A DNA stretch of 64,000 bases. It comes from Desulfobacterales bacterium. Lineage in GTDB: Bacteria; Desulfobacterota; Desulfobacteria; Desulfobacterales; SURF-7. The stretch spans positions 68,076 to 132,075 of the forward strand of contig JAWOIJ010000068.1 in the NCBI GenBank assembly GCA_046484745.1, written 5' to 3'. The position numbers were made by a program, and so were the translations under genes. Positions 48,260 through 63,920 of this stretch are shown piece by piece. Positions within the stretch are counted from its first letter, which is position 1, and every line of letters starts with the position of its first letter. A model generated the notes under the pieces. The model made no database searches, was not told the DNA's origin, and saw only the letters and a list, made by a program, of their open reading frames with translations.

Positions 48260-50407
48260 CTACTCTTTCAGCATCTTTTGAATACTCTTGGAATAGAACT
48301 TATCTATGTATTCCTTGACCATCCGGCGGGCGGAAAATCTGGCCGCGTTGCTTTTCATTGCCGCCTTCATCACCTTGACCCAATCCTGCGGAACGCCGCT
48401 TTCAGACGTCTTGTAATAAAGCGGTATGATCTCATTTTCCAGAATACGGTAAATCTTTTCGGCATCACTTCCATCCGGGCTCGCAGAACTCGCGTCATGC
48501 TCCACAGCCCAACCGTTTCCCCCGTTGAAACCCTCCACCCACCAGCCGTCCAGTATGCTTAAATTCGGCACACCGTTTAAAGCGGCTTTCATGCCACTCG
48601 TCCCGCAGGCCTCAAGAGGAGGGAGAGGGGTGTTCAGCCATATATCAACGCCATGCACCAGGTACTGAGCCAATTGCTCGCCATAATCCTCCACAAAGGC
48701 GATTCTGCCCCCAAGCTGCGGATCACGGGCCAGGTTGATCAGGTTTTGAAGAAGCCGTTTGCCGGGGTCATCGGCGGGATGGGCTTTGCCTGCAAAGATA
48801 ATCTGTATAGGGCGCCAGCGATCCTTGAAATGTTTTTTAAGACGATCCAGATCCTGAAAGATCAACAAGGCTCTTTTGTAAGTGGCGAACCTGCGGGCAA
48901 AGCCGAGTGTAAGAACCGAGGGGTCCAGAAAGGCACCCCCGGTAAGCATGATGGAGGCGCTGGCATCCCCATTGGCCCAGCGTTGGCGTGTGCGCTCCCT
49001 TATAGCATCGATCAGTTTTACCTTGAGCCAGTGATGCGTTTGCCAAAACTCGGTGTCGGGGACGTTGTCAAGCAGCTCCCAACACGCCGGATCATCATGC
49101 TGATCCAGCCAACCGGCTCCGAGGTGTTTGTTCAGCAGAAGTTTTATTTTCGGTTCGATCCAGGTGGGCACGTGGACTCCGTTGGTGACGTAATCGATAG
49201 GGACCTGATCCTCTGGCACTTCAGGCCACAGGCTTCGCCACATCTTCCGGGAGACCTCTGCGTGCCGTTGGCTTACACCATTCCGGCAGCCGGATAAGCG
49301 CAGTGCAAAAGCCGTCATATTGAATCCGGCGTCCGGCTTTTCCGGATGAACTCCCATTTTTAAAAAAGTATCGCGATCAAGACCCAGGGCAGGCCAGTAG
49401 GAATGGAAATACCGTTCGATCAATTGGAAGGGAAACACATCGTGGCCTGCTGGAACAGGGGTGTGTGTTGTAAAGATTGTGGAATTGATAATTTTTTCGC
49501 GAGCTGCGGCAAATTCGCTGCCCGTTTCCACATGTTCCCTGATACGTTCCAGAAGCGCGAAAGCCGCATGGCCTTCGTTCAAGTGTAAAAGGTAATGATC
49601 GATCCCCAGCATCTTGAGCATCTCGGCCCCCCCGATCCCCAGAACAATTTCCTGGCGCAGGCGTTGTTCAAGATCGCCGGTGTAAAGCCGAGCGCTGATT
49701 CCTCTGTTCCAGGGGTCGTTGATCTCGACATCCGTGTCCATCAGGTAGAGGGAAACACGTCCGACGGCTACCTTCCAAACCGCGACATGGATGGGCGGAT
49801 CGGTCAGTGGAATTTTTATGACGAGTTGCTGTCCATTCTCACCCAATACCTTGGAAATGGGCGCGGCCTCGCGGTTTATGGACTCGTCGAGATTCTCCTG
49901 CCAGCCGTCATCCCGGATCTGCTGCCGGAGATATCCTTCCGGATACATAAAACCCACTGCCACCAGCGGGATACACAAGTCGCTGCATTCCTTGATGTAA
50001 TCTCCCGCCAAAAAGCCCAATCCTCCGGCATAGAAGGGTAATGAGCGATGGAGACCGTATTCAGCGGAAAAGTAGGCCACGGCAAACTTATGGTCCCGCG
50101 AAACAGGTTCCAGCAGATGGCACTCTTTTTGTTTCATGTACTTACGGAACACATCCATCACATCATCGTACCTGCGAATGTAGTCGGCATCGGCGCCGGC
50201 CTTTTTCAGGAGTTCGCGGGGAAACTCCCTGAGCATCTTGTCCGGATTGTGACCGCTTTCCTTCCACGCCTGCCGATCGAGTGTTTTGAAAAGCATCCGC
50301 GCACCGGGATTCCAGCTCCACCAGAGATTTTCCGCCAGTTCCTCCAGGCCCGCGAGGCGTTCCGGTAAATGGGGAAAAAGAGGTTGCCTGGTATTCATTT
50401 TTTCCAT
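48260..50407 (-). CDS. glgP: alpha-glucan family phosphorylase (GT35)
   Basis: 715 aa. The N-terminus is LPERLAGLEELAENLWWSWNP. The pyridoxal-phosphate site context is EACGTSGMKAALNG. Confidence 0.9.
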   Translation of the reverse strand: MEKMNTRQPLFPHLPERLAGLEELAENLWWSWNPGARMLFKTLDRQAWKESGHNPDKMLREFPRELLKKAGADADYIRRYDDVMDVFRKYMKQKECHLLEPVSRDHKFAVAYFSAEYGLHRSLPFYAGGLGFLAGDYIKECSDLCIPLVAVGFMYPEGYLRQQIRDDGWQENLDESINREAAPISKVLGENGQQLVIKIPLTDPPIHVAVWKVAVGRVSLYLMDTDVEINDPWNRGISARLYTGDLEQRLRQEIVLGIGGAEMLKMLGIDHYLLHLNEGHAAFALLERIREHVETGSEFAAAREKIINSTIFTTHTPVPAGHDVFPFQLIERYFHSYWPALGLDRDTFLKMGVHPEKPDAGFNMTAFALRLSGCRNGVSQRHAEVSRKMWRSLWPEVPEDQVPIDYVTNGVHVPTWIEPKIKLLLNKHLGAGWLDQHDDPACWELLDNVPDTEFWQTHHWLKVKLIDAIRERTRQRWANGDASASIMLTGGAFLDPSVLTLGFARRFATYKRALLIFQDLDRLKKHFKDRWRPIQIIFAGKAHPADDPGKRLLQNLINLARDPQLGGRIAFVEDYGEQLAQYLVHGVDIWLNTPLPPLEACGTSGMKAALNGVPNLSILDGWWVEGFNGGNGWAVEHDASSASPDGSDAEKIYRILENEIIPLYYKTSESGVPQDWVKVMKAAMKSNAARFSARRMVKEYIDKFYSKSIQKMLKE

Positions 50408-50525
50408 ATTTTATATTCTCCTAAACAATGAAGTCGCTATTCTAAGCTCCTCTTTCTGCACACTTTCCTTCTGCGAAAGGAGATGGGCCAAATCATCAAG
50501 GACAGTTCGCCGCTCCAAAAGAATT

Positions 50526-50871
50526 CTACGCACGCATCGAGGACGCGTTCACCTTGTTTTTTTGAATTTCCGGCAGCCCCATTTTCATCATTTCAGAGTG
50601 AATGCGCCCAAAGGGCCGATACGGGTCTAGGAGTAACCCCCTTAAATCATGGTCAAATGTTGACTCGACGTCGAGCTGCGGAAAATGACCGAACGTTGGA
50701 TACGTCGTAAGGGTGATTCCGGTGGACTGGGCCAGGACGGTGCGCCCGTGCTTCACCGGCAAGATGGAATCTTTCTCTCCCCAGAACAGGGCCATGGGGG
50801 GGCAGCCCTTGCCCAGATGCGATGCGAATCCTGGAAGCCGTGATGAGCACGAGCGGCGCGCCCGAACCCAT
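50526..50871 (-). pseudogene. alpha/beta-hydrolase remnant (internal deletion plus frameshift)
   Basis: One frame gives GSGAPLVLI, the N-terminal oxyanion region of alpha/beta hydrolases. Only about 20 codons later, another frame gives the C-terminal ALFWGEKDSILP...FGHFPQLD. The catalytic core is missing. Confidence 0.6.
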
Positions 50872-50942
50872 CTCGCTCCAAGCTATTGATAACCGTGTAC
50901 GGTGGTTTTGTGGGATTGTCCAATCATCTCCATATGTGTTGG

Positions 50943-51845
50943 TTATTTCCTTTTTCCTCTCATTCTGATTCCTGCCAAGCCTGCTATTCCAGTGCCGAAG
51001 AGGAGAATGGTGGTGGGTTCCGGGACCGACGCCGGCGCATCGTCGTCGCTGCCGCCGCCGCTGCCGCCGCTGAAGCCGTAGCTGCCGAAGTCTGAGCGGC
51101 CGCTACCGAAGTCTTCAGCTGTGTTATTATTGGAAATAAAATTATCTGTCAATGCCACTGCCCCGGTTAGCGCGAAGGCCCTTCCGCACAGAATCTCTGC
51201 CCGGGGATCAAGGGTAATGCTCGCAAGAGCAAAAATATTTCCTGCAAACGTTGTGTCTGTCCCCAGAGTCGCGGAGCTGCCGACCTGCCAATACACGCCG
51301 CTAAGTGGACCTCCATTTATGATGTCAACAGAAGAGCCGCTTCCGGTCGTGAGCGTACTCCCGATCTGGAAAATGAAGTCCGCATCGGGGTTGCCATCGA
51401 AATCGAGAGTGAGTGCTCCTGTCAACTGAGCCGATGAATCAAAATGATAGACACCCGGCGTGAGTGTGGTGTATCCCGCTGAACCCAAATCAACACCAGT
51501 ATAGTCGTAAACGAAAGGCAAGCCTGATAGTGTATTGTACGCAGATGTTGCATCCGCCAGAGCAAGTTGCGCGACCCCATCATTTATGTGTATCGTTCCT
51601 CCGCTGACGGTCCCGTCAGGATAAAAGCCAGTGACCGAAGTCCCTGGCGTCACACCCAAATCCCCGTAGATTTGAGTGGTCGGGTTCGGAGCGCTATGAC
51701 CATTGGTCACCGTTTCGTAACCCAGGACCGCGAAGCTCTGCGCCGAATCCAGCATTGGCGTGGCCAATCCTGGGGTGGAGGGGAAAAGAAACGCGGCGAA
51801 TGCCACGATGCCCCAGATAATCAAATAGTTGTGTTTGTGTTTCAT
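50943..51845 (-). CDS. DUF3494 (ice-binding-like) beta-solenoid protein with PEP-CTERM sorting signal
   Basis: Signal peptide. FAVLGYETVTN...IYGDLGVTPGTSVTGF...LTPGVYHF...FIFQIGSTLTT...YWQVGSSATLG matches the IBP/DUF3494 pattern. The C-terminus VPEPTTILLFGTGIAGLAGIRMRGKRK is a PEP-CTERM signal. Confidence 0.8.
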   Translation of the reverse strand: MKHKHNYLIIWGIVAFAAFLFPSTPGLATPMLDSAQSFAVLGYETVTNGHSAPNPTTQIYGDLGVTPGTSVTGFYPDGTVSGGTIHINDGVAQLALADATSAYNTLSGLPFVYDYTGVDLGSAGYTTLTPGVYHFDSSAQLTGALTLDFDGNPDADFIFQIGSTLTTGSGSSVDIINGGPLSGVYWQVGSSATLGTDTTFAGNIFALASITLDPRAEILCGRAFALTGAVALTDNFISNNNTAEDFGSGRSDFGSYGFSGGSGGGSDDDAPASVPEPTTILLFGTGIAGLAGIRMRGKRK

Positions 51846-52000
51846 TTTGACTCTCCTTTCCTCAAGTTTTTTTCGCCTTCAGTCCATCTGACTGATCGGC
51901 TCAATTTTTTTTACTTTTAAAGGTTAGCCGGTATTCTAAGCCCCGGCCGGCTGTTTAGGAGAAGAATGCTGATAAAATCAGCACTGGTAAATGACTGATT

Positions 52001-52019
52001 AAAAACCGGACCCCCGGTT
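52001..52019 (-). terminator. short hairpin plus U-run in the leader of the PEP-CTERM gene (attenuator or small-RNA terminator candidate)
   Basis: The minus strand reads AACCGG-GGGT-CCGGTT followed by TTT. It lies about 45-60 nt downstream of the 52062-52077 promoter element. Confidence 0.3.
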
Positions 52020-52061
52020 CTCTTAAAACGAGAATAATAGTGCCGTTATTCACCCTATAAG

Positions 52062-52077
52062 TTCAATCTTTGTGCCA
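52062..52077 (-). promoter_or_regulatory. -24/-12-like element TGGCACAAAGATTGAA, module copy A
   Basis: Read on the minus strand. It is identical to the copy at 63806-63821 and lies about 215 nt upstream of the ATG at 51845. Confidence 0.5.
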
Positions 52078-52177
52078 TGTTTCCGACACTCAGAGGCGAA
52101 TCACCCATCTTTCTGATTTATAAGAATAATTAGTTTAAAAAGCTCATTCAGGGCAGTCATGAACAGCCATATAAGAG

Positions 52178-52208
52178 GGTCATATTTAACCGGTGGTTAT
52201 ATATGACC
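52178..52208 (-). promoter_or_regulatory. tandem palindromic boxes (putative UAS), module copy A
   Basis: GGTCATATTTAACC (52178-52191), then GGT, then GGTTATATATGACC (52195-52208). Confidence 0.55.
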
Positions 52209-52256
52209 CTTTTCCGGCGGTTTTGCTGCTCATGTATAAAATTTGAATCGCTCAGA

Positions 52257-52772
52257 TTAAAATTTAAAACCAATGCCTAAAAGATAGACGAACCGTCCAT
52301 CATTATAATTATCATCTATTTCATCCGTATCTTCGAAGAGAAATTGATATTCTATACCTCCGGTAATGAACGTCGTGTCATTGACAAAATATTTTACGCC
52401 GCCTTCCAGTCCTGCAATAAATTGCTCTTCGACCGACTCACCGTATAAATAGCCGATACTGGCTCCAAGATATGGATGCCAGCGCCCCAAATCAAAATTA
52501 TAATCGAACGCTAACCGGGTAGAACCATTCCAACTGTCGCGGCCGGGGAGATCGGCATATGAAATCCCTTGCCGCCAAATTGATTCTAAGTTTTGGGTCA
52601 AGAAAAGCCCCAGACCGGCTTCGATATTGAACACTGTGCCATCAAAACTTTCATCGCTGGACCCGTTTCCACCCAGTGTCAATTCCAAATCCCCCTGCTT
52701 GTATGCCGCCATAGCCGTTGGAACAACAAACAACATAGATACTACCATCAACATGAACATTAATTTTTTCAT
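52257..52772 (-). CDS. small outer-membrane beta-barrel protein
   Basis: 171 aa. It has a signal peptide, alternating beta-strand pattern and a C-terminal GIGFKF. Confidence 0.65.
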   Translation of the reverse strand: MKKLMFMLMVVSMLFVVPTAMAAYKQGDLELTLGGNGSSDESFDGTVFNIEAGLGLFLTQNLESIWRQGISYADLPGRDSWNGSTRLAFDYNFDLGRWHPYLGASIGYLYGESVEEQFIAGLEGGVKYFVNDTTFITGGIEYQFLFEDTDEIDDNYNDGRFVYLLGIGFKF

Positions 52773-52950
52773 TTTTTAGACTCCTTAAATATAAATGAAG
52801 AGTTGTTTTAAGTTAAATCAAAAAAATGGAATTAAGTTTGCTTGACTCCGGTTACACCTCCCTTCACTGTGTCAGTATTTATTATAAAAATTACTGCCTG
52901 AGTTCATTTTCTAAAACAAACCCTGATAAAATTCTTTTATATATGCCTCT

Positions 52951-54126
52951 CTATACCCTGCCGGACCGTTTCTCCTGGGCATACCCCGCTATTCCGGTCA
53001 TGAATCGAACCAATTCATAACAGAGCCAACTCACCAGACGCAGCCCAATGGGCTGAATTTTCCAGCTAGTTTGAAGTACTCGCCGTGCCCCGATATCAAT
53101 GGCACGCTCCAGGCTATACCTCAGTGTTTTGGCAAAGGCTTCATCATCAACAACAACATTTGCTTCAAGAGAGAGCAGCAGACTGAAAGGGTCAAGATTT
53201 GAGGAACCCACCGTAGCCCAATGTTTATCAATCACAGCAACTTTAGCGTGCATGAGGCTCTGGTGGTATTCGTAAATCTCAATTCCCGCATCCAGAAAAC
53301 TGCCATATAGGGCATGCGAGGCATAATGCAGCAATCGATAATCCGCCTTTCCTTGCAACAGCAGTATCACCCGGACACCGCGCCCGGCTGCATCCAAAAG
53401 CGCATGACGAAAATTCAATCCGGGTAAAAAGTAGGCATTTGCCAGAATGATTTCAAATTGCGCCTGTTCAATCGCCTGTAAATAGGCATCTTCAATATCG
53501 CGGCGATGGCGGACATTATCCCTTACCAGAAAAGCCGCCCGCATGTGACCCTTGGATTCGGTTGAGGGAGATTGTCTGTCGTTTCCCGGGCCCCAGCCAG
53601 GACGCAGGCGGGTCCAGACCACCCGCGACCACACCCGGCGGGCGGAAGCATGTATTTTTTTCACCAGCGGCCCCTCCACACTTACAGCGTAGTCATAACG
53701 AGGCGATGTTTGGCCAGGCGTATCCATGTCATCGATAATGTTAATCCCCCCGACAAATGCAAACTTCCGGTCCACGACCACAACTTTCCGGTGCAAGCGA
53801 CGCAACCTCCGGCGCCGCAGCGTCCAGGGCGATATCTTGGGCCGAAACTTCAGCACCATTACGCCGGCCGCCTCAAGATAATCAATCATGGTTTTCGATA
53901 AACCTTGCGAGCCGAATCCATCGATCAGAACATGGGTTTTTACACCTCGAAAGGCTGCCCGCCGGAGCGATTCCGCAATGCGTAATCCAATATTATCCTT
54001 TTCGAAAATATAACTTTCCAGATAAATTTCATGCACTGCCCGGTCCAGCGCCGCTTCGAGTGCCGGAAAATACGCTTCACCGTTTTGCAACAGGCGAATC
54101 TGATTGTCTGGAACAGTTTGAATCAC
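52951..54126 (-). CDS. clsB: cardiolipin synthase B-like phospholipase D family protein
   Basis: Two HKD motifs (HRKVVVVD...GGINI; HAKVAVID...GSSNLD) and no N-terminal transmembrane segment. Its short C-terminal tail is mildly hydrophobic. Confidence 0.8.
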   Translation of the reverse strand: MIQTVPDNQIRLLQNGEAYFPALEAALDRAVHEIYLESYIFEKDNIGLRIAESLRRAAFRGVKTHVLIDGFGSQGLSKTMIDYLEAAGVMVLKFRPKISPWTLRRRRLRRLHRKVVVVDRKFAFVGGINIIDDMDTPGQTSPRYDYAVSVEGPLVKKIHASARRVWSRVVWTRLRPGWGPGNDRQSPSTESKGHMRAAFLVRDNVRHRRDIEDAYLQAIEQAQFEIILANAYFLPGLNFRHALLDAAGRGVRVILLLQGKADYRLLHYASHALYGSFLDAGIEIYEYHQSLMHAKVAVIDKHWATVGSSNLDPFSLLLSLEANVVVDDEAFAKTLRYSLERAIDIGARRVLQTSWKIQPIGLRLVSWLCYELVRFMTGIAGYAQEKRSGRV

Positions 54127-54180
54127 AGCAGGGTTATCCCTTTTTTCCGTTCAGTGATTTGCTGAATCAACTGATATTTT

Positions 54181-54429
54181 TTACATCCGATCAATATTGG
54201 AACGGAGTTGAGCGATCTGAATTCCCAGACCAACACATTGTTTTCCGGCCATACACACATCGGCATCTTCAGGCTCCAGATAGGTTTTCAATTCATGATT
54301 GCCCTTCTTCAGATCTACCACCCAGGCTTTTTGAGTATCATCATAGTCGACATTAACATGAATGCCGCATTCGCCGATATCCGGATATATTGATTTGATT
54401 TTTTTACATAGTTCGCTTTTATTGTGCAT
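54181..54429 (-). CDS. hypothetical 82-aa protein
   Basis: An ORF with GGAGGT upstream, located between the BON gene and cls. I recognise no family. Confidence 0.5.
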   Translation of the reverse strand: MHNKSELCKKIKSIYPDIGECGIHVNVDYDDTQKAWVVDLKKGNHELKTYLEPEDADVCMAGKQCVGLGIQIAQLRSNIDRM

Positions 54430-54552
54430 GATATACCTCCTTCTGGTTTGAATATCAGATCAATTGGTACAAATAGCAGGCGCAGGAGCACAAGAATCAT
54501 CAATACAACAGCCCAGCCACTCCTTTCGGGTGCATGTCCCAGCAACCGGCTA

Positions 54553-54624
54553 TTAGTTCAGATTGATGATTATTCCCACAAAAGCCAGTATCAGAAATAA
54601 TATAAACATTGTGCCAAATGACAT
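54553..54624 (-). CDS. candidate 23-aa hydrophobic micro-protein
   Basis: Own translation: AAAGGAGG, then 7 nt, then ATG, giving MSFGTMFILFLILAFVGIIINLN. It is a single transmembrane helix located just downstream of the BON gene. Confidence 0.35.
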   Translation of the reverse strand: MSFGTMFILFLILAFVGIIINLN

Positions 54625-54715
54625 TATCCGTCCTCCTTTTCATAAATACATGATAGACATACCGCCGGAGCTGTCGGCAGCGAACCGGCGGCCAGCTGAT
54701 CCTGGGATAAGTCTC

Positions 54716-55498
54716 CTATACGGTCATGTTGTTGATCACCTTCTTTACGCCATGGACATCGCTCACGAGTTTGGCGGCCAGGTCCTTTTCAGCCTTGTTC
54801 CCGGCTTTGCCGCCCAACGTGACCACGCCATCCTTCGTATTTACAGTGGTGTCGAGACCGCTGGTCGAGCGGTGATACAGCAATGTCGTCTTGACCAGGG
54901 CAGTGATCGAGGCGTCATCAACCGATTCGATCACGGAATCCATCTTTTGGCCTATCGTGGTTCCGGCCGGCTTCGCTTTGGCTGTCTTGACTGTCATCTT
55001 GTTGTTAACCTTTTTGACGCCTTCCACATCCGCGGCGTATTCGGTCGTCAGATCCTTCTGGGCCTCGCTGTCGGCTTCGCCTAGCAAGGTGATGTTCCCG
55101 TCTTTTGCATTAACCTCAGTTCCGGTGGCGCTCACGTTCCGATGAAACAACAGTGTGGTTTTCACTTTGGTAATGAGCCACGCATCCGAGTTCTCGGCAG
55201 GGGCTTCATCTTCTACTTCCAGCTTGTTGTACACACTTTTAACTCCGGGAAGACTCGCTACGGTCTCTTTGGCCAATGATTTGTGGGATTCTTCGTTTAC
55301 AGTCCCTGTCAGGGTGACGGCGCCATCCTTGGATGAGACCTCAACGTCATCGCCCTTGAGGTAGGTCTTGAACACATACGACTTCATGGCGGCTGACTCG
55401 ATGCGGTCATCCGTATCGGATGCGAACACAGGGACATTGATCAGAAACATAGAAACCACAGCTGCTATCAGCGTTACGCAATACATTGTTTTTTTCAT
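54716..55498 (-). CDS. periplasmic BON-domain protein (OsmY-like, three BON repeats)
   Basis: Signal peptide plus three repeats of the pattern V...KDGxVTLxGxV......A......GVKxVxNxxxV. Confidence 0.85.
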   Translation of the reverse strand: MKKTMYCVTLIAAVVSMFLINVPVFASDTDDRIESAAMKSYVFKTYLKGDDVEVSSKDGAVTLTGTVNEESHKSLAKETVASLPGVKSVYNKLEVEDEAPAENSDAWLITKVKTTLLFHRNVSATGTEVNAKDGNITLLGEADSEAQKDLTTEYAADVEGVKKVNNKMTVKTAKAKPAGTTIGQKMDSVIESVDDASITALVKTTLLYHRSTSGLDTTVNTKDGVVTLGGKAGNKAEKDLAAKLVSDVHGVKKVINNMTV

Positions 55499-55709
55499 GG
55501 TGCTTTTCCTCCTTTTATGATTGTTGTTGTGTTACCGTTTCCGGAAACCTTTTCCGGACAATTCATTCGATTCGTACTTTCAGATCACAGGCAGGACAGG
55601 ATTTCTCTTCTTTGGGCCCTGGGAGGGATTGCGGCAGCAAGGTGCCCAACAAGAACAATAGCTCCGTTATTCACTGTTTTTCATATCCGAATCTATATCA
55701 ACCTTACTA

Positions 55710-55725
55710 TTCAACCTTTGTGCCA
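55710..55725 (-). promoter_or_regulatory. -24/-12-like element TGGCACAAAGGTTGAA, module copy B
   Basis: Read on the minus strand, about 215 nt upstream of the BON gene ATG. Confidence 0.5.
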
Positions 55726-55825
55726 CTTTTTGCCAGGCTTCCAACATTCCACCCATGGTCTCAATTTATAAGAACAATTTAGTTTCAGAGCATCTGAAGG
55801 GCGGTCTTAACCGCCATGAGAATAA

Positions 55826-55858
55826 GGTCATATTCACAATCCGTGATCATATATGACC
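55826..55858. promoter_or_regulatory. tandem palindromic boxes (putative UAS), module copy B, in a divergent region
   Basis: GGTCATATTCACAA (55826-55839), then TCCGT, then GATCATATATGACC (55845-55858). Confidence 0.55.
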
Positions 55859-56036
55859 TTTTTTCCCTGCTTTTATGGAATGGTGTGCCATCAAGACCCA
55901 TCACAACCAGTTCGATTTGATGTAGGTTGCTTATCGGTGCCGGACTCTTGATTCAGCGCGAGCTTAAGGGATAGACGAGCGGTATTCGTTCGTTATCCAA
56001 GCGCAAGTCCATACTTCTGATCGATTTTTCGGCTAT

Positions 56037-56052
56037 TGGCAGGCCTTTTGCT
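56037..56052 (+). promoter_or_regulatory. canonical sigma54 -24/-12 promoter (TGGCAGGCCTTTTGCT) for mlaEFD
   Basis: Correct GG-N10-GC spacing. It lies 175 nt upstream of the mlaE ATG and 180-210 bp from the copy B boxes. Confidence 0.55.
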
Positions 56053-56225
56053 TTAACATGTGTATGATCCTTGGAATCATATAAAGGCCCTTTCTGAGAA
56101 GTGCATGAAATTGCCGCAGACAATTGCTTCTCTGTCCGGTTCCATAAAGATGGAAGAGGACGGTTCCGGCAATACCGGATACGGCATATGTCTTTGAACC
56201 CCTATAATCTTCAGGAGTCTTAACC

Positions 56226-57074
56226 ATGGCGCTTGATACGAACATTCCGCCTCCCTCTGTGAATGAAGCCGGATGGAAGCTTTTTACGCTCTTGTCGCGG
56301 CCATTTGCCGCTATGGGGAGAGTTGCAATCAACGGGATCGACAATTTAGGCGCTGCGGGTATTTTCCTTATTCTGGCGTTGGTCAAGATCGTAAGGCCCA
56401 ATCAGCTGTCCAAGATTGTTCATCAAATTTATTACATCGGGACGCGGTCTACGCCGATCATCATGCTCGTCGGCCTGTTCACCGGTATGGTCATAGGCCT
56501 CCAATCCTATTATGCATTGAATAAAGTCGGCGCTCAAGGAGCACTCGGAACTCTTGTAGCCCTGACTCTGGTCAGGGAATTGGGGCCTGTCCTCGCAGCC
56601 ATCATGATTGCAGCCAGGGCAGGGTCCGCCATCAGTGCAGAGATCAGCGTCCAGCGTATCTCCGAACAGATTGACGCGCTTTATACCATGCGCATTGATC
56701 CGATTGGGTATCTTGTCAGCCCGAGAGTTGCCGCTGCCATCATCAGCTTTCCCATGCTCACCGCCCTGTTCGATCTCATCGGTATAATCGGCGGGTATAT
56801 CTCCGGTGTACTGATTCTGGGTGCGAATGCCGGTACCTATTTTTATCGTGTTCAAACCAGTTTAGACATGAAAGATGTCTTCGACGGTTTCATCAAATCC
56901 ATCATTTTTGCCTTTATCGTCGTCACCGTCTGCTGTTATCAGGGTTATTTTGCGCATTTGCGTACGGATAGTCGTGGGGCCGAGTCCGTCGGACTTGCCA
57001 CCACCTCCGCCGTTGTCATCTCCTGTGTTCTGATTTTGGTGTCGGACTATGTCGTAACTTCCCTTCTGATGTAG
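56226..57074 (+). CDS. mlaE: MlaE-family lipid ABC transporter permease
   Basis: 282 aa with conserved MlaE/Ttg2B blocks (VGAQGALGTLVALTLVRELGPVLAAIMIAARAGSA). Confidence 0.85.
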   Translation: MALDTNIPPPSVNEAGWKLFTLLSRPFAAMGRVAINGIDNLGAAGIFLILALVKIVRPNQLSKIVHQIYYIGTRSTPIIMLVGLFTGMVIGLQSYYALNKVGAQGALGTLVALTLVRELGPVLAAIMIAARAGSAISAEISVQRISEQIDALYTMRIDPIGYLVSPRVAAAIISFPMLTALFDLIGIIGGYISGVLILGANAGTYFYRVQTSLDMKDVFDGFIKSIIFAFIVVTVCCYQGYFAHLRTDSRGAESVGLATTSAVVISCVLILVSDYVVTSLLM

Positions 57075-57082
57075 AGAGAGCC

Positions 57083-58327
57083 ATGGATACGCCATTGATT
57101 GAATTTAAAGAGGTCACAAAGAGGTTTGGAACCGAAACCGTCCTCGAAGGTGTAAACCTCAAGATATACGAGAAGCAGGTCACGACCATCATCGGTGTGA
57201 GTGGCGGCGGCAAGAGTGTCCTCCTGAAGCTTATCATCGGGCTGCTTAAACCTGATGAGGGAACCATTCTTTTCCGGGGCAAATCTTTTGCTGAAATGAA
57301 AAAACACGAAATAACCGCCTCTTTTGCCCGGATGAGTTACATGTTTCAAGACAATGCCCTGTTTGATTCCATGACTGTTTATGAAAATATTGCGCTGCCG
57401 CTTCGGGAAACAACGAAACATGGAAAGACTGAAATAAACCGGATGGTAATGGCCGGAATCGAACAGACGGAACTGGTCGACGCGGCCGACAAGTTTCCTT
57501 CCGAACTCTCCGGCGGTATGCAGAAGAGGGTGGCCCTGGCACGGGCACTGGTTATTGACCCTCAGATTGTCCTCTTTGACGAACCCACTTCCGGGCAGGA
57601 CCCTGTCCGGAAAAATGCAATTCTGAGCATGGTTGCCCAGTACCAACGAAAATTCGGCTTTACTGCGGTTCTGGTGAGCCATGAGATTCCGGATGTGTAT
57701 TTTATCTCAAACCGTATTCTCGCCCTCTATCATAAAAAAATCGTTTTTCAGGGCACTCCGGAAGAGCTTGATAGTTTCAATCACCCTTTCAAAGACGAGG
57801 TCATCCTCAGCCTGGAAGGATTGCAGGATGAATTAACGGGCCTGCACTCCAGGCGGATGTTTAATGTCATGTATCATTCCCAGCTGAAACATAAAACCAA
57901 CAGTGAGACATACTCCGTGGCGGTTTTTACCCTAAATACGCAGGATGCTATTTTAGGAGGTCTGGGCTTCGAGGAGGCACAGCGGGTGATCAATGCCATG
58001 GGGGTATATATCGATAAACACTTCGGCGCCATCGGGGGTTTTTCCACACGCCGCAAAATCAATGAATTTGTGTCGGTTCTCCCGTATTCGGATCTGGCTG
58101 AGGCTGAAGAAATCATGAAGGTTTTTGTCAAGGATTTCCAGGAACAGGGAATTCGTGACATTCGCTTCGAGGATCGCAGGCGAAGGGTTTCACGGGAATG
58201 CATTGAGATGTCGATCCACGCCGGTTTTGCCCAGGGTCAACCCATTGCCGAAATAGATACCGTCATCGAATCTGCCAAATCTCAACAAAAAAAAATAGGC
58301 CGGATTCTGTGTTCCAACAAGGAGTAA
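57083..58327 (+). CDS. MlaF-like ABC ATPase fused to a C-terminal degenerate GGDEF domain
   Basis: The N-terminal 245 aa has Walker A GVSGGGKS, the signature LSGGMQKRV and Walker B VLFDEPTS. From residue 249 it reads DELTGLHSRRMF...GGFSTRRKINEFVSVLP...SIHAGFA, a GGDEF fold in which GGDEF is replaced by KINEF. Confidence 0.8.
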   Translation: MDTPLIEFKEVTKRFGTETVLEGVNLKIYEKQVTTIIGVSGGGKSVLLKLIIGLLKPDEGTILFRGKSFAEMKKHEITASFARMSYMFQDNALFDSMTVYENIALPLRETTKHGKTEINRMVMAGIEQTELVDAADKFPSELSGGMQKRVALARALVIDPQIVLFDEPTSGQDPVRKNAILSMVAQYQRKFGFTAVLVSHEIPDVYFISNRILALYHKKIVFQGTPEELDSFNHPFKDEVILSLEGLQDELTGLHSRRMFNVMYHSQLKHKTNSETYSVAVFTLNTQDAILGGLGFEEAQRVINAMGVYIDKHFGAIGGFSTRRKINEFVSVLPYSDLAEAEEIMKVFVKDFQEQGIRDIRFEDRRRRVSRECIEMSIHAGFAQGQPIAEIDTVIESAKSQQKKIGRILCSNKE

Positions 58328-58331
58328 AACC

Positions 58332-58787
58332 ATGAAAAAGTACTCAAAAGAAACTACAGTAGGAATTTTTCTCGTATTCGGCTTGCTCTGCATCGGGTAC
58401 ATGACGGTCACACTTGGCCATGTTTCCTTTCTCGGCGGCAATTCCTACCCTCTTTTCGCCCCTTTCACCACGGTAGCCGGGTTGAGAGTCGGCAGCCTCG
58501 TATATATGAACGGCATTGAGATCGGACGGGTGGAACGGCTTTCCATCGATCAGAAAAACCAGAAAAGCATGGTGGAAATGCGGATTCATAAGGGTATTGA
58601 AATTTATGATGATGCCCTCGCTTCCATTAAAACGGAAGGGCTGATCGGCGATATGCATGTCAGCATAGACGCCGGAGGCGCGGGCGCGCTCCTTCAACCA
58701 GGCGGTATCATTACCGAGACGATGCCGCCTCTGGATATCGCGGACCTCATCAGCAAGTATGTCTTCGGTGATTTAGATAAGCCATAA
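58332..58787 (+). CDS. mlaD: MlaD (MCE-domain) substrate-binding protein
   Basis: 151 aa. An N-terminal anchor is followed by MCE-domain blocks (GLRVGSLVYMNGIEIGRV). Confidence 0.8.
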   Translation: MKKYSKETTVGIFLVFGLLCIGYMTVTLGHVSFLGGNSYPLFAPFTTVAGLRVGSLVYMNGIEIGRVERLSIDQKNQKSMVEMRIHKGIEIYDDALASIKTEGLIGDMHVSIDAGGAGALLQPGGIITETMPPLDIADLISKYVFGDLDKP

Positions 58788-58851
58788 GTTTCCAGGACAT
58801 TAATGGTAGAACACTCCAAATGCCGGTATCAACGAACGAGGAGGCTCTTGA

Positions 58852-59172
58852 TCACCGTTCAATCGGAATAGATTGATGACAATCACTATAAATGTTCTCC
58901 ATGGGATCCAGCTGGGCCTTATAATCTCCGGTTATCTGAATCTCATGATTGAGACCTTTCACACCCTTGAAGTTTTTTAGAAAAACACTTTGACCAAACG
59001 GATGAACGTTTGAAATCCCGCACGTATGGATAAAAACCTTTCGAGCTTTTTTGCATTTATCCTGCAATGCATGAATCAGTTCAAAAGCAGAATTGCCATC
59101 AAAAGAGCCAGTAAGGTTAAGGTGAACATTTTCGCTGTTTCGGTGAATCTGAATTTTAAAATTTGATGCCAT
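58852..59172 (-). CDS. small STAS-like (anti-sigma antagonist-like) protein, tentative
   Basis: 106 aa. The pattern VHLNLTGSFDGNSAFELIHAL...KVFIHTCGISNVHPFG resembles a STAS fold. There is no phosphorylatable-Ser context that I can verify. Confidence 0.35.
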   Translation of the reverse strand: MASNFKIQIHRNSENVHLNLTGSFDGNSAFELIHALQDKCKKARKVFIHTCGISNVHPFGQSVFLKNFKGVKGLNHEIQITGDYKAQLDPMENIYSDCHQSIPIER

Positions 59173-59294
59173 ACCTTTCTCCCTTTTCCCTGAAACAAAA
59201 TCAATGCATCGGGACGAAACTCATATTAGCAGTTATCTCAACGATACCTGGGTTTAAATTGCAACCTATTCATCAGACATCAGGTTAAACCGCA

Positions 59295-59690
59295 TCAATC
59301 TATAGAAGATCTATCAGGTCCTGATGCATGGTTTCTGATGCACGCTTCCACCCAAAGTTTCTGATAATAGGATAAATCCTGAAACTCCATACGGCAACAT
59401 TGAACGCCATTTGAATTGTTCGGATTTTCATACGCAATCTTTGCATCAGAAATAATATGCGTACTGAATTTAAAAGGACCGTATTTTAAATTGTCTGTTG
59501 TATTGTCGAACATAAATGATACTTCGCATGCATCGCTCATGATTTCTTTTTTCCCCTTATAATGGAAAGATAATCCACCATGACTGATATCGACAATCTT
59601 CCCGATTAGATCAAAATAGGGTTCGAGTACAACTAACGTTCCATCTGTAACGTTATGCCTTTGATGTCTTCTAGACTCTTTCTGATTCAT
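59295..59690 (-). CDS. PilZ-domain c-di-GMP binding protein
   Basis: Trimmed to the ATG at 59690 (AGGAAGGAGA upstream). It has the RRHQR (RxxxR) and DISHGGLSF (D/NxSxxG) motifs. Confidence 0.75.
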   Translation of the reverse strand: MNQKESRRHQRHNVTDGTLVVLEPYFDLIGKIVDISHGGLSFHYKGKKEIMSDACEVSFMFDNTTDNLKYGPFKFSTHIISDAKIAYENPNNSNGVQCCRMEFQDLSYYQKLWVEACIRNHASGPDRSSID

Positions 59691-59718
59691 GATTCTCTTC
59701 TCCTTCCTCAAACTGAGA

Positions 59719-59737
59719 GGTCCTGGTCATCAGGACC
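59719..59737 (-). terminator. hairpin between micro-ORF copy 2 and the PilZ gene
   Basis: GGTCCTG-GTCAT-CAGGACC with perfect 7-bp arms and no U-tract. Confidence 0.25.
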
Positions 59738-59817
59738 GGTACTGACGAAATATAAACTTCTCCTCCAACGGTATCGATCTATTGTTCCCTTTGGACGGAC
59801 ATATGCTTTAAATAAAT

Positions 59818-59979
59818 TTAGTATGTATTTCTTTATCCGGGTTGTTCAGAGATGGCTTTTCTCGAATCTCTATTTCGCATTCAGGAAACAGCATGCTTAA
59901 ATTCTTCATCAGAAGATAGCTATCTGTAAAATCTGTGAAAGGCTCCTTTAGAATCACTATTTTTTTCAATTTCAGCCTC
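59818..59979 (-). CDS. 53-aa micro-protein, paralog 2 of a tandem pair (TTG start)
   Basis: Own translation after GGAGG-CTGAAA-TTG: (M)KKIVILKEPFTDFTDSYLLMKNLSMLFPECEIEIREKPSLNNPDKEIHTKFI. It is not in the ORF track. Confidence 0.4.
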
Positions 59980-60131
59980 CTTTCTTTTCCGGCGCTGACT
60001 CTTCCATCTATTTCGATGGATAAGCCATAAGTTTCCGGGACTCAAAAGCGATATTTTCTCTCCATCATCTGTTATGTATCCAATGACCGTCTTCCGTTGA
60101 CCATCTTCAACCTTTCCTGATTCGTTAAAAG

Positions 60132-60314
60132 TTACTTCAAAAATATGCACTTTTTAAACCACGGAAATGGGATTTCTTCTTCCGGGTTATATACAGGTGG
60201 ATTTTCTCGAATCTCGATTTCACATTCAGGAAACAGCATTCTTAAATATCCCTCCATATGATCGCTATGCAGAGAATTTGTGAAAGGCCTCTTTAGAATG
60301 ACTATTTTTTTCAA
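60132..60314 (-). CDS. 60-aa micro-protein, paralog 1 of a tandem pair (TTG start)
   Basis: After GGAGG-TTGAAA-TTG: (M)KKIVILKRPFTNSLHSDHMEGYLRMLFPECEIEIRENPPVYNPEEEIPFPWFKKCIFLK. This is the 3' part of track ORF 60132..60365. Confidence 0.4.
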   Translation of the reverse strand: MKKIVILKRPFTNSLHSDHMEGYLRMLFPECEIEIRENPPVYNPEEEIPFPWFKKCIFLK

Positions 60315-60325
60315 TTTCAACCTCC

Positions 60326-60430
60326 TTTCTTTTCCGAATCTCCATCTCCACCAAAGATTCCCCACAGCGCCTCCAGGCCTGTGAGGCTCTCCGGCAAACG
60401 GGGGAAAATGATATTCCTCATATTTTTCAT
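60326..60430 (-). pseudogene. 5' remnant of an alpha-glucan phosphorylase paralog (frameshifted, truncated)
   Basis: The minus strand gives MKNMRNIIFPRLPESLTGLEAL, then a frameshift, then GNLWWRW. This parallels the glgP N-terminus (48260..50407) FPHLPERLAGLEELAENLWWSW, and the DNA also aligns by eye (GGCCTGGAGG, AATCTxTGGTGGAG). Confidence 0.55.
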
Positions 60431-60562
60431 TACACGTTCGTTACAAGACATGGTATTTCACGGGCAACCAGTGACAAATTTTTAAGCGTTGAAAAGTCGC
60501 TCGCGGGTTCGGTGGCCAGGTCCTTTTTGCCCTCTTTGTCCTTTTTGTCCTTATTTTGTTAT

Positions 60563-60578
60563 TTCAATTTTTGTGCCA
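60563..60578 (-). promoter_or_regulatory. -24/-12-like element TGGCACAAAAATTGAA, module copy C
   Basis: Read on the minus strand, about 135 nt upstream of the phosphorylase-remnant ATG. Confidence 0.45.
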
Positions 60579-60678
60579 GATTTCTGACACGCAGGGCTCC
60601 GTCTTCCATCTTTTCGATTTTTAAGAAAAATGAGTTTGAAAAGCCCTTTCAGAGCCGCCATTAACAAGCATAAAAAAG

Positions 60679-60710
60679 GGTCATGTGCAACCAGAAGGTC
60701 ATATATGCCC
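60679..60710 (-). promoter_or_regulatory. tandem palindromic boxes (putative UAS), module copy C
   Basis: GGTCATGTGCAACC (60679-60692), then AGAA, then GGTCATATATGCCC (60697-60710). Confidence 0.5.
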
Positions 60711-60820
60711 TTTTCCCGTCCCCTTTGTGTTATATCGAAATGTCGACTTTTTACGAATGCGTCTATATTGATCTTGAAAAAATAATCGGCTGAAAGATGT
60801 TCAACTGTTCGGTCCTGTTT

Positions 60821-61036
60821 CTATTTCTTAATCGTTTTGCGTCTGCTCGACGTTGTCACTGAGGCAAGGATACCTATGAATATGCCGATCAGAAGGGTGA
60901 GCCCGAGCCATATGGCATTCGACATGGTGATCTTGATGAACAGGAACCTGATTTCAACGGGTTGCGTGTTCTGAAGTATCACAATTACGCATAGAACGAC
61001 CGCTGTGAGCGCACCAATGAGTTTCGCTCTTTTCAT
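60821..61036 (-). CDS. LapA-like (DUF1049) inner-membrane protein
   Basis: 71 aa with two transmembrane helices. The pattern ILQNTQPVEIRFLF is typical of the LapA/YciS domain. Confidence 0.65.
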   Translation of the reverse strand: MKRAKLIGALTAVVLCVIVILQNTQPVEIRFLFIKITMSNAIWLGLTLLIGIFIGILASVTTSSRRKTIKK

Positions 61037-61071
61037 CCGATGTTTGTCCTCCTCTTAATCATGATTTTCTA

Positions 61072-61329
61072 TTATCCGGTAGTGCTTTTCTTTCCGTCCA
61101 TGAACTCTGGATGCTCTTTTCGCAGATTTTCGTAGGCTTCCTTGAATTCATCAGCGTCATAATTCATTTCGCCGATACCGTCTTCTATTGAAGAAATCAG
61201 CTCTTCCGCTTCCAAAAACCTGGTGTTCCCATGCGGATTGAAAGTATCCGGAAAAATTGCTTTGTTTCCCGCCCATATTCTACTCAGCGTTTGTTCAAGC
61301 ATTGTTCCCCACTGGATATTTTTTGCCAT
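61072..61329 (-). CDS. hypothetical 85-aa acidic protein
   Basis: Trimmed to the ATG at 61329 (GGGAGA upstream). I recognise no family. Confidence 0.45.
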   Translation of the reverse strand: MAKNIQWGTMLEQTLSRIWAGNKAIFPDTFNPHGNTRFLEAEELISSIEDGIGEMNYDADEFKEAYENLRKEHPEFMDGKKSTTG

Positions 61330-61369
61330 GGTGCATTCTCCCTTTTTATTCCAAGGCATTCGATGGAAA

Positions 61370-61636
61370 TCAGGAAAGATATTTTGTCAACTCCCGAGCA
61401 GCCTTCACAATGTCCAGGATCGCCTCGTACACACCCTCTGCGCCGTGATTTGTTTTCTTTTTAATCTTATCCTGAACTTCGGATTTGATTTTTTTCAAGT
61501 TTTGAGCATGTTTTTCAAACTGCAGGCGATGCTCTTCCTCCATGTCGTTGATGACACCGGAATCAAACTGTTGAATGAGTTCATCGGCCTCAGCCAGCAG
61601 TTGCTCAATATTTTTGGATTCTAAATTCTTTGTCAT
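61370..61636 (-). CDS. hypothetical 88-aa coiled-coil protein
   Basis: Trimmed to the ATG at 61636. It is lysine- and glutamate-rich and helical. I recognise no family. Confidence 0.45.
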   Translation of the reverse strand: MTKNLESKNIEQLLAEADELIQQFDSGVINDMEEEHRLQFEKHAQNLKKIKSEVQDKIKKKTNHGAEGVYEAILDIVKAARELTKYLS

Positions 61637-61760
61637 AATGTTCCCTATTGCCACCCGGAAAGCGATTTGACTCCTGAAGTTTCAATCAGACGGTTGATGT
61701 CAGTGGCCTCATTTTCCTTTAATAATGATGTCGCATACAACGGCGTCGGTGATGTCCGTC

Positions 61761-63239
61761 TTAATAAATATAAAGTTCGCATATTCTACGGTAATGATAG
61801 CCGTATATGGACAGGGTTATTGCCACAGGCATAAGTCTAGGTTTGCGGAGCAGGGTCCAGAGCATCAGTTGCCAGTAACGGAAACGCTCCTTCCCCAAAA
61901 CCCCGAGCCGAAATACGGATCGAAACAATGAAAGGAACCGCTGAATATCTACCGGCTGTCTGATTTCAGGCGTCTTTAGTTCCTTCAGTAACGTTCTGAC
62001 CCGCCGGTAGTAGTTTTCAGGAGAATATATATGTTTCATAATCGATTGATATCCGTCCAAAAGCCTGGCCATGCCCATTCGAGGGAGAATATTGGTTGTC
62101 CCGTCAACATTATCTCCGGAAAAGGTATTTACAACCCGACATTCCCGTTGGAGACGGTCAAAGAGACGAGTTCCCGGAGGCGCCTGGAGCATTCCGACCA
62201 TTGCGGTTACGATTCCGCTCTTCTGAATGAAATCGATCTGACGCTGGAAAATAGAAGGCGTGTCGCTGTCAAAACCAACAATAAAACCTCCCATCACCTG
62301 CAGCCCTGAGCGGTGGATAATCGCAACACTTTCTAGGAGATCCCGGTTCTTGTTTTGGGTTTTATGGCATTCCGTAAGACTGCCCTCATCGGGTGACTCA
62401 ATGCCGATAAAAACGGAATCGAATCCAGCCATTACCATCATATCCAGAAGTTCAGGGTCATCAGCGAGATTAATGGAGGCTTCCGTGAAAAAAACGCATC
62501 CCTTTTTATCTTTACGCCATTCGATCAGAGCGGGAAGTAAATGTGTTTTAAGATAGACCTTATTTCCAATAAAATTGTCGTCAACGAAAAATATACCGCT
62601 GCGCCAGCCGGAAGCATAAATACGATCCAGTTCCGTGGTAACCTGCTGAGGTGTTTTGATGCGTGGTTGGTGACCGAATAAAGCCGTTACATTACAGAAT
62701 TCGCAGTTAAACGGACATCCTCTGGAAAACTGAATATTCATGGACGCATATCGTTTTGTTTCTATCAGATCCCAGGATGGAATGGGGGTGTCGCGAAGAT
62801 CGCAGAAGCCGGAAGCCCTGTAGATCTTTTTTAGCTGTCCGCTTTGCAGGTCCGATAGAAAAGCGGGAAGCGTCAATTCCGCTTCGTCGAGAACGAGATG
62901 GTCCACCTCTCCAAATTCATCGGGTTCAGATGTAAAAAGCGGCCCGCCGGCAATGACTCTTAAATTCGAAGCCTTGCAACGGGCGATAATTTGTTTGGCC
63001 GATTTCCGCTGAACTGCCATACCCCCTATAAAGGCCATATCCGCCCATAAAAGATCTTTATCCGTAAGGCTATCCACATTCATGTCTACAAGGCGCTTGG
63101 ACCAATCCTCCGGCAACAGGGACGCGACGGTGATCAGGCCAAGAGGCGGAAAGGCCGCTTTCTTTCCGATAAAGCTTAAAGCGTATGTGAAAGACCAGAA
63201 AGTATCCGGTAATTTTGGATAAACCAGTAGAACGTTCAT
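61761..63239 (-). CDS. B12-binding-domain radical SAM protein with DUF4070-type C-terminus
   Basis: The N-terminal cobalamin-binding fold is VLLVYPK...PPLGLITVASLLP. The radical SAM cluster motif is SRGCPFNCEFC. A long helical C-terminal domain follows. Confidence 0.8.
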   Translation of the reverse strand: MNVLLVYPKLPDTFWSFTYALSFIGKKAAFPPLGLITVASLLPEDWSKRLVDMNVDSLTDKDLLWADMAFIGGMAVQRKSAKQIIARCKASNLRVIAGGPLFTSEPDEFGEVDHLVLDEAELTLPAFLSDLQSGQLKKIYRASGFCDLRDTPIPSWDLIETKRYASMNIQFSRGCPFNCEFCNVTALFGHQPRIKTPQQVTTELDRIYASGWRSGIFFVDDNFIGNKVYLKTHLLPALIEWRKDKKGCVFFTEASINLADDPELLDMMVMAGFDSVFIGIESPDEGSLTECHKTQNKNRDLLESVAIIHRSGLQVMGGFIVGFDSDTPSIFQRQIDFIQKSGIVTAMVGMLQAPPGTRLFDRLQRECRVVNTFSGDNVDGTTNILPRMGMARLLDGYQSIMKHIYSPENYYRRVRTLLKELKTPEIRQPVDIQRFLSLFRSVFRLGVLGKERFRYWQLMLWTLLRKPRLMPVAITLSIYGYHYRRICELYIY

Positions 63240-63277
63240 ATCAGCAAACTCCTTTCCGCATTACAATATGGGGAAAA

Positions 63278-63821: not shown

Positions 63822-63920
63822 GATTTTCAACACACAAGGCCGCATCGCCAAACAATAGATTTGTAAGAATAATTAGCTTGAAAAGGAGTTCCGGGGTTGT
63901 TGGTAACAGCCAATTAAAAA

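Follow-up and report, generated by a model that had tools for sequence, protein, structure and literature searches.

The Desulfobacteria play a major part in marine and sediment carbon and sulfur cycling, and almost no activators with assigned targets are on record for them. Their genomes hold up to 69 genes for sigma-54 activators, the largest known sets (PMC12316311). In Desulfovibrio vulgaris, of the same phylum, the orp operons are described as controlled by sigma-54, integration host factor (IHF) and the activator OrpR (PMC8359166), and DVU3305, a sigma-54 activator of “general stress,” is a two-component response regulator that targets UspA-type and kdp genes (PMC3333781). Outside this phylum, the psp envelope-stress system of Escherichia coli (PMC3709507) serves as the sigma-54 comparison. 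The present analysis concerns a stretch of 64,000 nucleotides from a Desulfobacterales bacterium (contig JAWOIJ010000068.1, positions 68,076 to 132,075 of the forward strand; hereafter the window), in which an intergenic module of ~170 bp occurs in five full copies, four on the minus strand and one on the plus strand. Each copy carries, in a fixed order, two palindromic boxes, an AT-rich block and an element of the -24/-12 type. It is quite probable, judging from sequence, that each copy is an enhancer-dependent sigma-54 promoter of one fixed plan and that together they drive a dispersed regulon of the envelope- or general-stress type.

The module and its five copies in the window

All five copies are intergenic in the open reading frame (ORF) map of the window, and each faces the start of the next gene. 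Aligned over ~170 nt, they have a mean column identity of 63%, and the 58 invariant columns are grouped at four places: box 1, a portion of box 2, the AT block and TGGCA. A profile scan of the window, with these copies included in the profile, returned exactly five full copies (E 7e-28 to 4e-49). The copies, designated c52k, c55k, c60k, c63k and c10k, are made up as follows, the predicted start being placed 12 nt beyond the -12 base, which was taken to be the A or C of TTGA/ATGC.

52062-52208, minus strand: c52k, whole module
52195-52208, minus strand: c52k box 1, GGTCATATATAACC, centre at about -150 from the predicted start
52178-52191, minus strand: c52k box 2, GGTTAAATATGACC, centre at about -133
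52106-52130, minus strand: c52k AT-rich block ATTATTCTTATAAATC, leading into the IHF-like AATCAGAAAGATG
52062-52077, minus strand: c52k -24/-12 element, TGGCAC-AAAGA-TTGAA, predicted start near 52051
55710-55858, minus strand: c55k, whole module (box 1 55845-55858, box 2 55826-55839, AT block 55763-55778)
55710-55725, minus strand: c55k -24/-12 element, TGGCAC-AAAGG-TTGAA, predicted start near 55699
60563-60710, minus strand: c60k, whole module (box 1 60697-60710, box 2 ~60679-60692, AT block 60616-60631)
60563-60578, minus strand: c60k -24/-12 element, TGGCAC-AAAAA-TTGAA, predicted start near 60552
63806-63951, minus strand: c63k, whole module (box 1 63938-63951, box 2 63921-63934, AT block 63858-63873)
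63806-63821, minus strand: c63k -24/-12 element, TGGCAC-AAAGA-TTGAA, predicted start near 63795
10500-10647, plus strand: c10k, whole module (box 1 10500-10513, box 2 10516-10530, AT block 10579-10594)
10591-10603, plus strand: c10k, AATCAAAATGATG at the AT block
10632-10647, plus strand: c10k -24/-12 element, TGGCAT-AAAGA-ATGCT, predicted start near 10658

A preliminary description, made from the window alone, had already read five ordered copies here, with two 14-bp palindromic boxes 17-19 bp apart from centre to centre, a conserved AT block that partly resembles an IHF site, a conserved spacer within the -24/-12 element and an orientation toward the adjacent gene in every case. Both renewed reading and the profile scan confirm the copies, and the remaining details hold as well, the spacer being AAAGA, AAAGG or AAAAA in the window. 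The boxes follow the 14-bp palindromic consensus GGTCATATATGACC / GGTYAAATATGACC. In the window copies, box 1 is centred at -150 to -152 and box 2 lies 17-19 bp nearer the promoter, while all five AT blocks start at -79 or -78 and continue into AATCA(A/G)-N4-ATG near -65, close to the IHF consensus WATCAA-N4-TTR (best matched in c10k, poorly in c55k). Boxes 1 and 2 jointly form one long inverted repeat between an A-run and a T-run, with 19-nt arms in c52k. Nine palindromes with at most 3 mismatches occur in the window against 1.7 expected, a number reached in none of 100 shuffles, and the AT block pattern occurs 11 times against 3.0 expected. TGGCAC-N5-TTGM, however, is not rare when taken singly (14 matches against 8.6 expected), so that the significance is carried by the ordered combination.

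Coupling of boxes, promoter and activator gene in related genomes

Two scans of public sequences, one keyed to each side of the module, yielded more than 150 independent instances in which the boxes and a -24/-12 element are held at a fixed distance of ~100 nt. The first covered one genome per species with the pattern TTCTTANAAAT-N30-45-TGGCAYAAARNWTG, which includes no palindrome bases, and returned 51 loci, 34 of them from Desulfobacterales, Desulfobacteraceae or “delta” metagenome-assembled genomes (MAGs). The palindrome pair was present at constant spacing in every one of these 34 that reaches far enough upstream (L047 ends at a contig edge before the box region, and L006 has only box 2), whereas the remaining 17, from unrelated AT-rich taxa, have no palindromes. 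No locus in this genome scan has the window's own arrangement. The second scan searched metagenome contigs for the palindromes alone (TCATATATGACC-N6-11-AATATGACC) and gave at least 120 loci, with 119 pairs that have enough flanking sequence. Among these 119 listed pairs, a strict TGGCA[CT]-N5-[AT]TG[ACT] lies 97-103 nt past box 2 in 86, with a peak at 100-101 nt; a relaxed -24/-12 score is passed by 108, as compared with ~6% of background windows; and in 8 of the remaining 11 the promoter lies ~100 nt away on the opposite side, with the box order swapped. In sum, the -24/-12 element is tied to 116 of the 119 listed box pairs. The -24 GG and the -12 TG are invariant, at exact spacing, in the modules retrieved by boxes alone. 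As in the window, modules also occur at several loci in groups of two or three that span a few kb.

Conservation within the module is confined to discrete elements. The spacer measures 99-102 nt in 87 of 95 unique modules, and 68 of them have an IHF-like [AT]ATCA[AG]N4[AT]T[AG] at 40-41 nt from TGGCAC; the strict AT block is retained in only 24. In many modules (for example at L085, L102, L107, L113, L131, L145, L149 and L165) the spacer is otherwise unrelated, yet boxes, spacing, IHF-like site and -24/-12 are kept. Per-column information over 103 dereplicated modules peaks at box 1, the best-conserved block, at the right half of box 2, at AAATCA..ATGATG, at TGGCAC and at TTG, and is low between them. 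At L066 (730-1000) and L109, a single box pair stands between two divergent TGGCAC-AATGA-TTGC promoters, each ~100 nt away. Together with the swapped box order in 8 of the listed metagenome pairs and with the position of the boxes at -133/-150, which at the sequence level is that of an upstream dyad, this suggests that the boxes behave as an orientation-independent enhancer. The genome comparison that the preliminary description had called for placed its hits upstream of genes in a consistent orientation and spacing, 154 of 163 modules being intergenic, and the candidate sigma-54/activator stress regulon that it had proposed gains comparative support.

A candidate for the protein that binds the boxes lies beside many of the retrieved modules. 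A gene for an AAA+ activator of 476-587 aa stands directly upstream of the module in L014, L021, L023, L036, L044 and L051, and at a greater distance in L018 and L030. Its product consists, by Pfam, of PAS, Sigma54_activat (PF00158, E ~1e-69), AAA_lid_14 and HTH_8 domains with no Response_reg, and its sigma-54 contact loop reads GAFTGS or GSFTGS. NifA and ZraR are the best solved relatives, and the PAS region has no informative solved relative. The protein falls under all curated NCBIfam cut-offs tried, including those for FhlA (391 vs 830), NifA (375 vs 529), NorR, PrsR and PspF. Among the 116 modules with enough upstream sequence, 32 have an orthologue of this activator (60-99% identity), encoded on the same strand and ending 63-280 nt ahead of box 1, and such an orthologue adjoins 18 of the 22 modules whose first gene is ABM. 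Since c63k is an ABM-type copy whose box 1 ends at 63951, 49 nt short of the end of the window, we predict a gene for the activator immediately past base 64000. The adjoining PAS–AAA+–helix-turn-helix (HTH) protein is likely the cognate activator of the module. A large hybrid histidine kinase, whose N-terminal PAS domain is homologous to that of the activator (45-65% identical; L079, L064, L010, L099 and L068), also recurs among the genes behind modules and is downstream of the module in L079 and L064. The signal of the activator may also feed a second pathway.

The ORFs downstream of 145 modules were clustered and representatives scanned. The commonest first genes outside the window are ABM (27 modules), usually followed by a B12-radical-SAM gene, and BON/OsmY-like genes (21 modules). 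CsbD, DUF883, holin-X/YqjE-like, YflT, Transgly_assoc (GlsB/YmgE-like), PRC-barrel, DUF3309 and LapA recur behind modules, as do OmpA-VWA, outer-membrane protein (OMP) barrel, SPFH, PLD/cardiolipin synthase, SbmA/BacA-type ABC protein, GT2 glycosyltransferase and DsrD. In E. coli, OsmY and ElaB/YqjD are RpoS-dependent; in Bacillus, CsbD and YflT belong to the SigB regulon; and EcfG regulons typically include PRC-barrel and CsbD proteins. By this analogy, the downstream genes appear to be dominated by families of general- and envelope-stress regulons, and the stress label seems a reasonable one.

Proposed mechanism and competing explanations

Taken together, the data allow a model of how the module may work. 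The two boxes at about -150 and -133 would form the upstream activating sequence, the AT-rich tract would hold an IHF-type site at about -65, and TGGCAC-N5-TTGA/ATGC at -24/-12 would hold a closed complex of RNA polymerase and sigma-54. The activator would be a protein of ~505-515 aa in which a PAS sensor at the N-terminus is followed by a coiled-coil linker, an AAA+ domain (GAFTGS) and, at the C-terminus, a Fis-type HTH. Upon sensing of a signal by the PAS domain, the AAA+ domain would be released, dimers bound to the boxes would build a hexamer, IHF would bend the ~100-bp spacer, and ATP hydrolysis would open the promoter. The output would consist of BON/OsmY, DUF883/YqjD-like, holin-X/YqjE-like, CsbD, YflT, GlsB-like, PRC-barrel and LapA proteins, and also of OmpA, cardiolipin synthase, the ABM + B12-radical-SAM operon and the PEP-CTERM protein. 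The layout of the module and its conservation, the linkage of its elements, the neighboring activator gene and the recurring gene families are observed directly, whereas we infer the box-binding protein, the dependence on sigma-54, the role of IHF and the existence of an inducing signal from sequence patterns. In addition, it is plausible that the box pair doubles as a hairpin that halts transcription running on from the gene upstream, for instance where that gene encodes the activator. The mechanism appears to be ordinary textbook sigma-54 control of a regulon that appears to be undescribed, as full-text searches, whose coverage of the literature was incomplete, brought up no account of the site, of the activator family or of the regulon.

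Several observations weigh against this model. In 4 of the 5 window copies, and likewise in 65 of the 86 strict listed metagenome matches, the -12 element is TTGA, whose final A replaces the C that is usually conserved; the canonical -12 GC appears only as the variants ATGC/TTGC, in c10k and in 21 of the 86 strict listed relatives. A centre-to-centre distance of 17-19 bp would place two dimers on different faces of the helix, which is atypical of well-studied activators. The box pair can also fold as a terminator-like hairpin, flanked by an A-run and a T-run in roughly half to two-thirds of the modules, so that termination could account for part of its conservation. The module of c63k and its orthologue at L023 are 67% identical, against 68% at the 4-fold degenerate sites of the adjoining radical-SAM gene. 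The orthologous pair is thereby ruled out as a test of purifying selection, and selection is deduced from paralogues and divergent modules only. As both public scans were seeded by patterns from the window, family-wide frequencies are biased toward consensus-like copies. The stress label follows from family names that match RpoS, SigB and EcfG outputs, and from names only. Finally, as the preliminary description had noted, the 64-kb window contains no gene for a sigma-54 activator (enhancer-binding protein).

An unlikely alternative, though the one that survives best, is that the box pair is primarily a bidirectional intrinsic terminator or insulator that travels with the cassette, the activator acting elsewhere or without DNA binding. 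The predicted RNA hairpin is stable in c52k (-24.7 kcal/mol, z -6.4) and c55k (-19.1 kcal/mol), most consensus-type copies have an A-run ahead of the boxes and a T-run behind them, the boxes of c52k, c60k and c10k lie 47-145 nt past the stop codon of a co-directional gene, and there is slight covariation at the outermost stem pairs. However, the hairpins of c60k, c63k and c10k are weak, the stem is A+T-rich, and a simple terminator scan of 50000-64000 flagged none of the four minus-strand copies. It is also the sequence itself, beyond pairing, that is 90-100% conserved across paralogues and genera, and the boxes are kept even where the T-run (35 of 95 unique modules) or the A-run (49 of 95) is absent. 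At L066 and L109 the pair lies between outward-facing promoters with no gene ending there, and the fixed distance from box to -24 in 87 of 95 modules would be needless for a terminator.

It is improbable that the promoter is not sigma-54-dependent, with the palindromes serving as operators of an ordinary repressor or activator and transcription directed by sigma-70 or an extracytoplasmic function (ECF) sigma factor. Most copies do lack the canonical -12 C, and the commonness of TGGCAC-N5-TTGM in the window (14 against 8.6 expected) would fit such a scheme. However, neither a scan nor inspection by eye found a conserved -35/-10 pair at 16-18 nt spacing in or after the module, the sigma-70 scan giving only a plus-strand match in c63k that points the wrong way and a weak TTGTCA/TACCAT downstream of c60k. 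The invariance of -24 GG and -12 TG in box-retrieved modules speaks for sigma-54, an operator 130-150 bp from its promoter with an IHF-type site between is the sigma-54 pattern, and the adjoining regulator is itself a sigma-54 AAA+ activator.

Recent spread could also produce alike copies, and the module would then be a mobile or recombinationally spreading repeat, similar to a miniature inverted-repeat transposable element (MITE) or a repetitive extragenic palindromic (REP) sequence, with an outward promoter. The module is indeed multi-copy and clustered, with four copies inside 12 kb of the window, and its whole-module identity of 63-78% is high for promoters. Three near-identical copies, each followed by the same small ORF, lie at contig ends in one MAG, JAWOIY01 (L006, L012 and L046), as would be seen where a repeat breaks short-read assemblies. 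This explanation is nevertheless very improbable. No terminal inverted repeats or target-site duplications bracket the module, nearly all modules are intergenic (154 of 163), a same-strand ORF begins within 450 nt in 132 of the 135 with enough downstream sequence, conservation is limited to discrete elements, and 2.9 million viral contigs gave 0 matches. Moreover, ABM, BON, OMP barrel and LapA genes retain their modules across genomes whose proteins share only 65-88% identity, and the module positions are therefore taken to be orthologous. That the module is or encodes a structured RNA (a small RNA or a cis-regulatory leader), as the long conserved stretch and the stable box hairpin of some copies might suggest, is scarcely credible given 0 Rfam matches in the whole window, 0 consensus pairs by RNAalifold over 35 copies, and the persistence of only the boxes, the IHF-like site and -24/-12 in divergent modules. 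A third inverted repeat, GGCTGT-N5-ACAGCC, in which compensatory changes had seemed present by eye, shows no covariation on counting (72% paired vs 71% in shuffles).

Genes behind the window copies and relation to known systems

The genes that the five window copies face, and the gene next to one of them, are listed below.

10772-12408, plus strand: c10k operon, with a weakly DUF883_C-like protein, a holin-X/YqjE-like protein, a weak DUF3618/DUF883_C protein and a 117-aa protein
50943-51845, minus strand: c52k gene, ice-binding-like PEP-CTERM protein (Pfam Ice_binding and PEP-CTERM)
52951-55498, minus strand: c55k operon, with a triple-BON OsmY-like protein (54716-55498), an 82-aa protein and a PLD-type cardiolipin synthase (52951-54126)
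52257-52772, minus strand: OMP beta-barrel gene, next after the c55k operon on the same strand
59295-60451, minus strand: c60k genes, small ORFs followed by a weak PilZ match (59295-59711)
60821-63655, minus strand: c63k operon, with ABM (63278-63655), B12-radical-SAM/DUF4070 (61761-63239), two small proteins and a LapA-domain protein (60821-61036)

Among the gene identities offered by the preliminary description, Pfam bears out ice-binding/PEP-CTERM, BON, cardiolipin synthase (cls), ABM, B12-radical-SAM, LapA and YqjE-like, the last with a firm holin-X match (E 3.9e-15). The DUF883_C match of the first protein in the c10k operon (E 0.004) and the PilZ match (E 0.0012) fall under the Pfam cut-offs, and the labels “DUF883-like” and “PilZ” are therefore tentative; DUF883-type first genes do recur after modules at other loci. 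The small ORFs behind c60k have no family match. Elsewhere, an OMP barrel lies right behind the module in L010, and cls follows a module in L063. The B12-radical-SAM/DUF4070 protein scores below every curated family cut-off; it comes closest to models for PhpK-type P-methyltransferases and for a lipid-biosynthesis B12-radical-SAM protein, and a role in membrane-lipid modification is only a guess.

The leaders of three copies share a further feature. On the minus strand after c52k (51955-52053), c55k (55585-55674) and c63k (~63700-63775), a common GTGAATAAYGGCACTAYTGTTCTYGTTGGG is found, and the frame NNGT(I/T)VLVGxL(T/A)AAI within it differs from that of L105 mostly by synonymous changes. This suggests a hydrophobic micro-ORF of ~28 aa in the leaders, with its first codon close to or at the predicted transcription start; in c63k the frame has no start codon, and in c52k it diverges early. 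Positions 52005-52027 on the minus strand form a terminator-like hairpin, GAGAACCGGGGGUCCGGUUUUU, ~25-45 nt into the predicted c52k transcript and 160 nt ahead of the PEP-CTERM gene; it could act as an attenuator or define a short transcript. Just past the c60k promoter, the leader at 60518-60555 has four tandem 9-nt units that read AAAAAGGAC-like on the minus strand. At 59920-60365, also on the minus strand, two neighboring small ORFs in different frames, with no family match, have a common C-terminal RKRKE(A/V)EIEKNSxSKxAFHxF, which looks like a tandem duplication, possibly with a frameshift. On the plus strand, three ORFs of 282, 414 and 151 aa (56226-58787) diverge from the c55k boxes and resemble, by eye, an Mla-type lipid-transport ABC operon; no module faces them.

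Partial or box-less matches occur in the window as well.

18582-18626, plus strand: partial sixth copy, with one perfect GGTCATATATGACC and TGTTAATGACAGCCC (profile E 6.9e-7)
4140-4154, minus strand: sigma-54-like -24/-12 match without palindromes, TGGCAC-AATAA-TTGA
8105-8119, minus strand: sigma-54-like -24/-12 match without palindromes, TGGCAT-GATAA-TTGA
21225-21239, plus strand: further box-less -24/-12 match, TGGCAC-ACATT-TTGC

The partial copy has no second box, AT block or -24/-12 element, and may be a decayed module or a single-dimer site; it lies upstream of an ORF (18696-19172) that has no family match. The box-less elements may be promoters on which other activators act.

A broader proposal, which is a serious possibility rather than a probable one, is that general and envelope stress in the Desulfobacterales is governed by a single PAS-type sigma-54 activator acting on dozens of near-identical 170-bp cassettes, with no dedicated stress sigma and with the ABM + B12-radical-SAM operon as a core target. 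If so, this would be an independent, enhancer-based general stress response that employs the same small proteins as RpoS, SigB and EcfG do elsewhere. Should the stress reading be true, its tuning would also be different, with a tight off-state, ATP-dependent activation and a single sensor. One activator family can be linked by sequence alone to a putative site, a promoter plan and a recurring target set, making the regulon readable in metagenomes. The ABM + B12-radical-SAM operon and several DUF proteins would gain a first functional handle. The compact and strongly conserved cassette, for which tight regulation is predicted, is also a candidate promoter part for sulfate-reducer genetics.

The module may finally be set beside the systems already described. 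With the classical sigma-54 promoters (NtrC-glnAp2, NifA-nifH, XylR-Pu) it has in common the layout of a dyad upstream activating sequence at -100 to -150, IHF-assisted looping and an exactly spaced -24 GG/-12; unlike them, its 14-bp dyads lie 17-19 bp apart, its -12 is mostly TTGA, and nearly the whole 170 bp is alike in paralogues. PrsR/PrsK (TIGR02915) similarly pairs a sigma-54 activator with PEP-CTERM genes, and a PEP-CTERM protein is encoded behind c52k, one of the five copies in the window. However, the module's activator has no receiver domain and scores 319.1 bits against 502.6 for PrsR, and most of its putative targets are not PEP-CTERM proteins. The system is also not that of the D. 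vulgaris activator DVU3305 (PMC3333781), a response regulator with other targets, for which neither a regulon of BON, CsbD and DUF883 proteins nor a GGTCATATATGACC-like site is reported. The psp system of E. coli combines a sigma-54 promoter, a pair of upstream activator sites and an intervening IHF site, as is predicted for the module. Neither PspF nor the module's activator is a response regulator, and the putative output of the module, like that of psp, concerns membrane integrity. However, the module's activator has a PAS sensor and scores 291 against a cut-off of 443.55 (TIGR02974) and 250 against 529 (PRK11608), and its boxes differ in sequence, its dispersed regulon would be far larger than psp, and pspA was not seen. 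Control of the module probably passes through the PAS domain, unlike the PspA-type inhibitor of psp. Model scores and domain content thus set the system apart from both PrsR and PspF. In its output families (OsmY/BON, ElaB/YqjD (DUF883), CsbD, YflT, YmgE/GlsB and PRC-barrel), it resembles RpoS of E. coli, SigB of Bacillus and EcfG of Alphaproteobacteria, although control would be exerted by one activator on sigma-54 promoters and without sigma replacement. Taken by analogy, its nearest functional analogue would be PspF/psp, and its nearest counterparts in output would be the RpoS, SigB and EcfG regulons.

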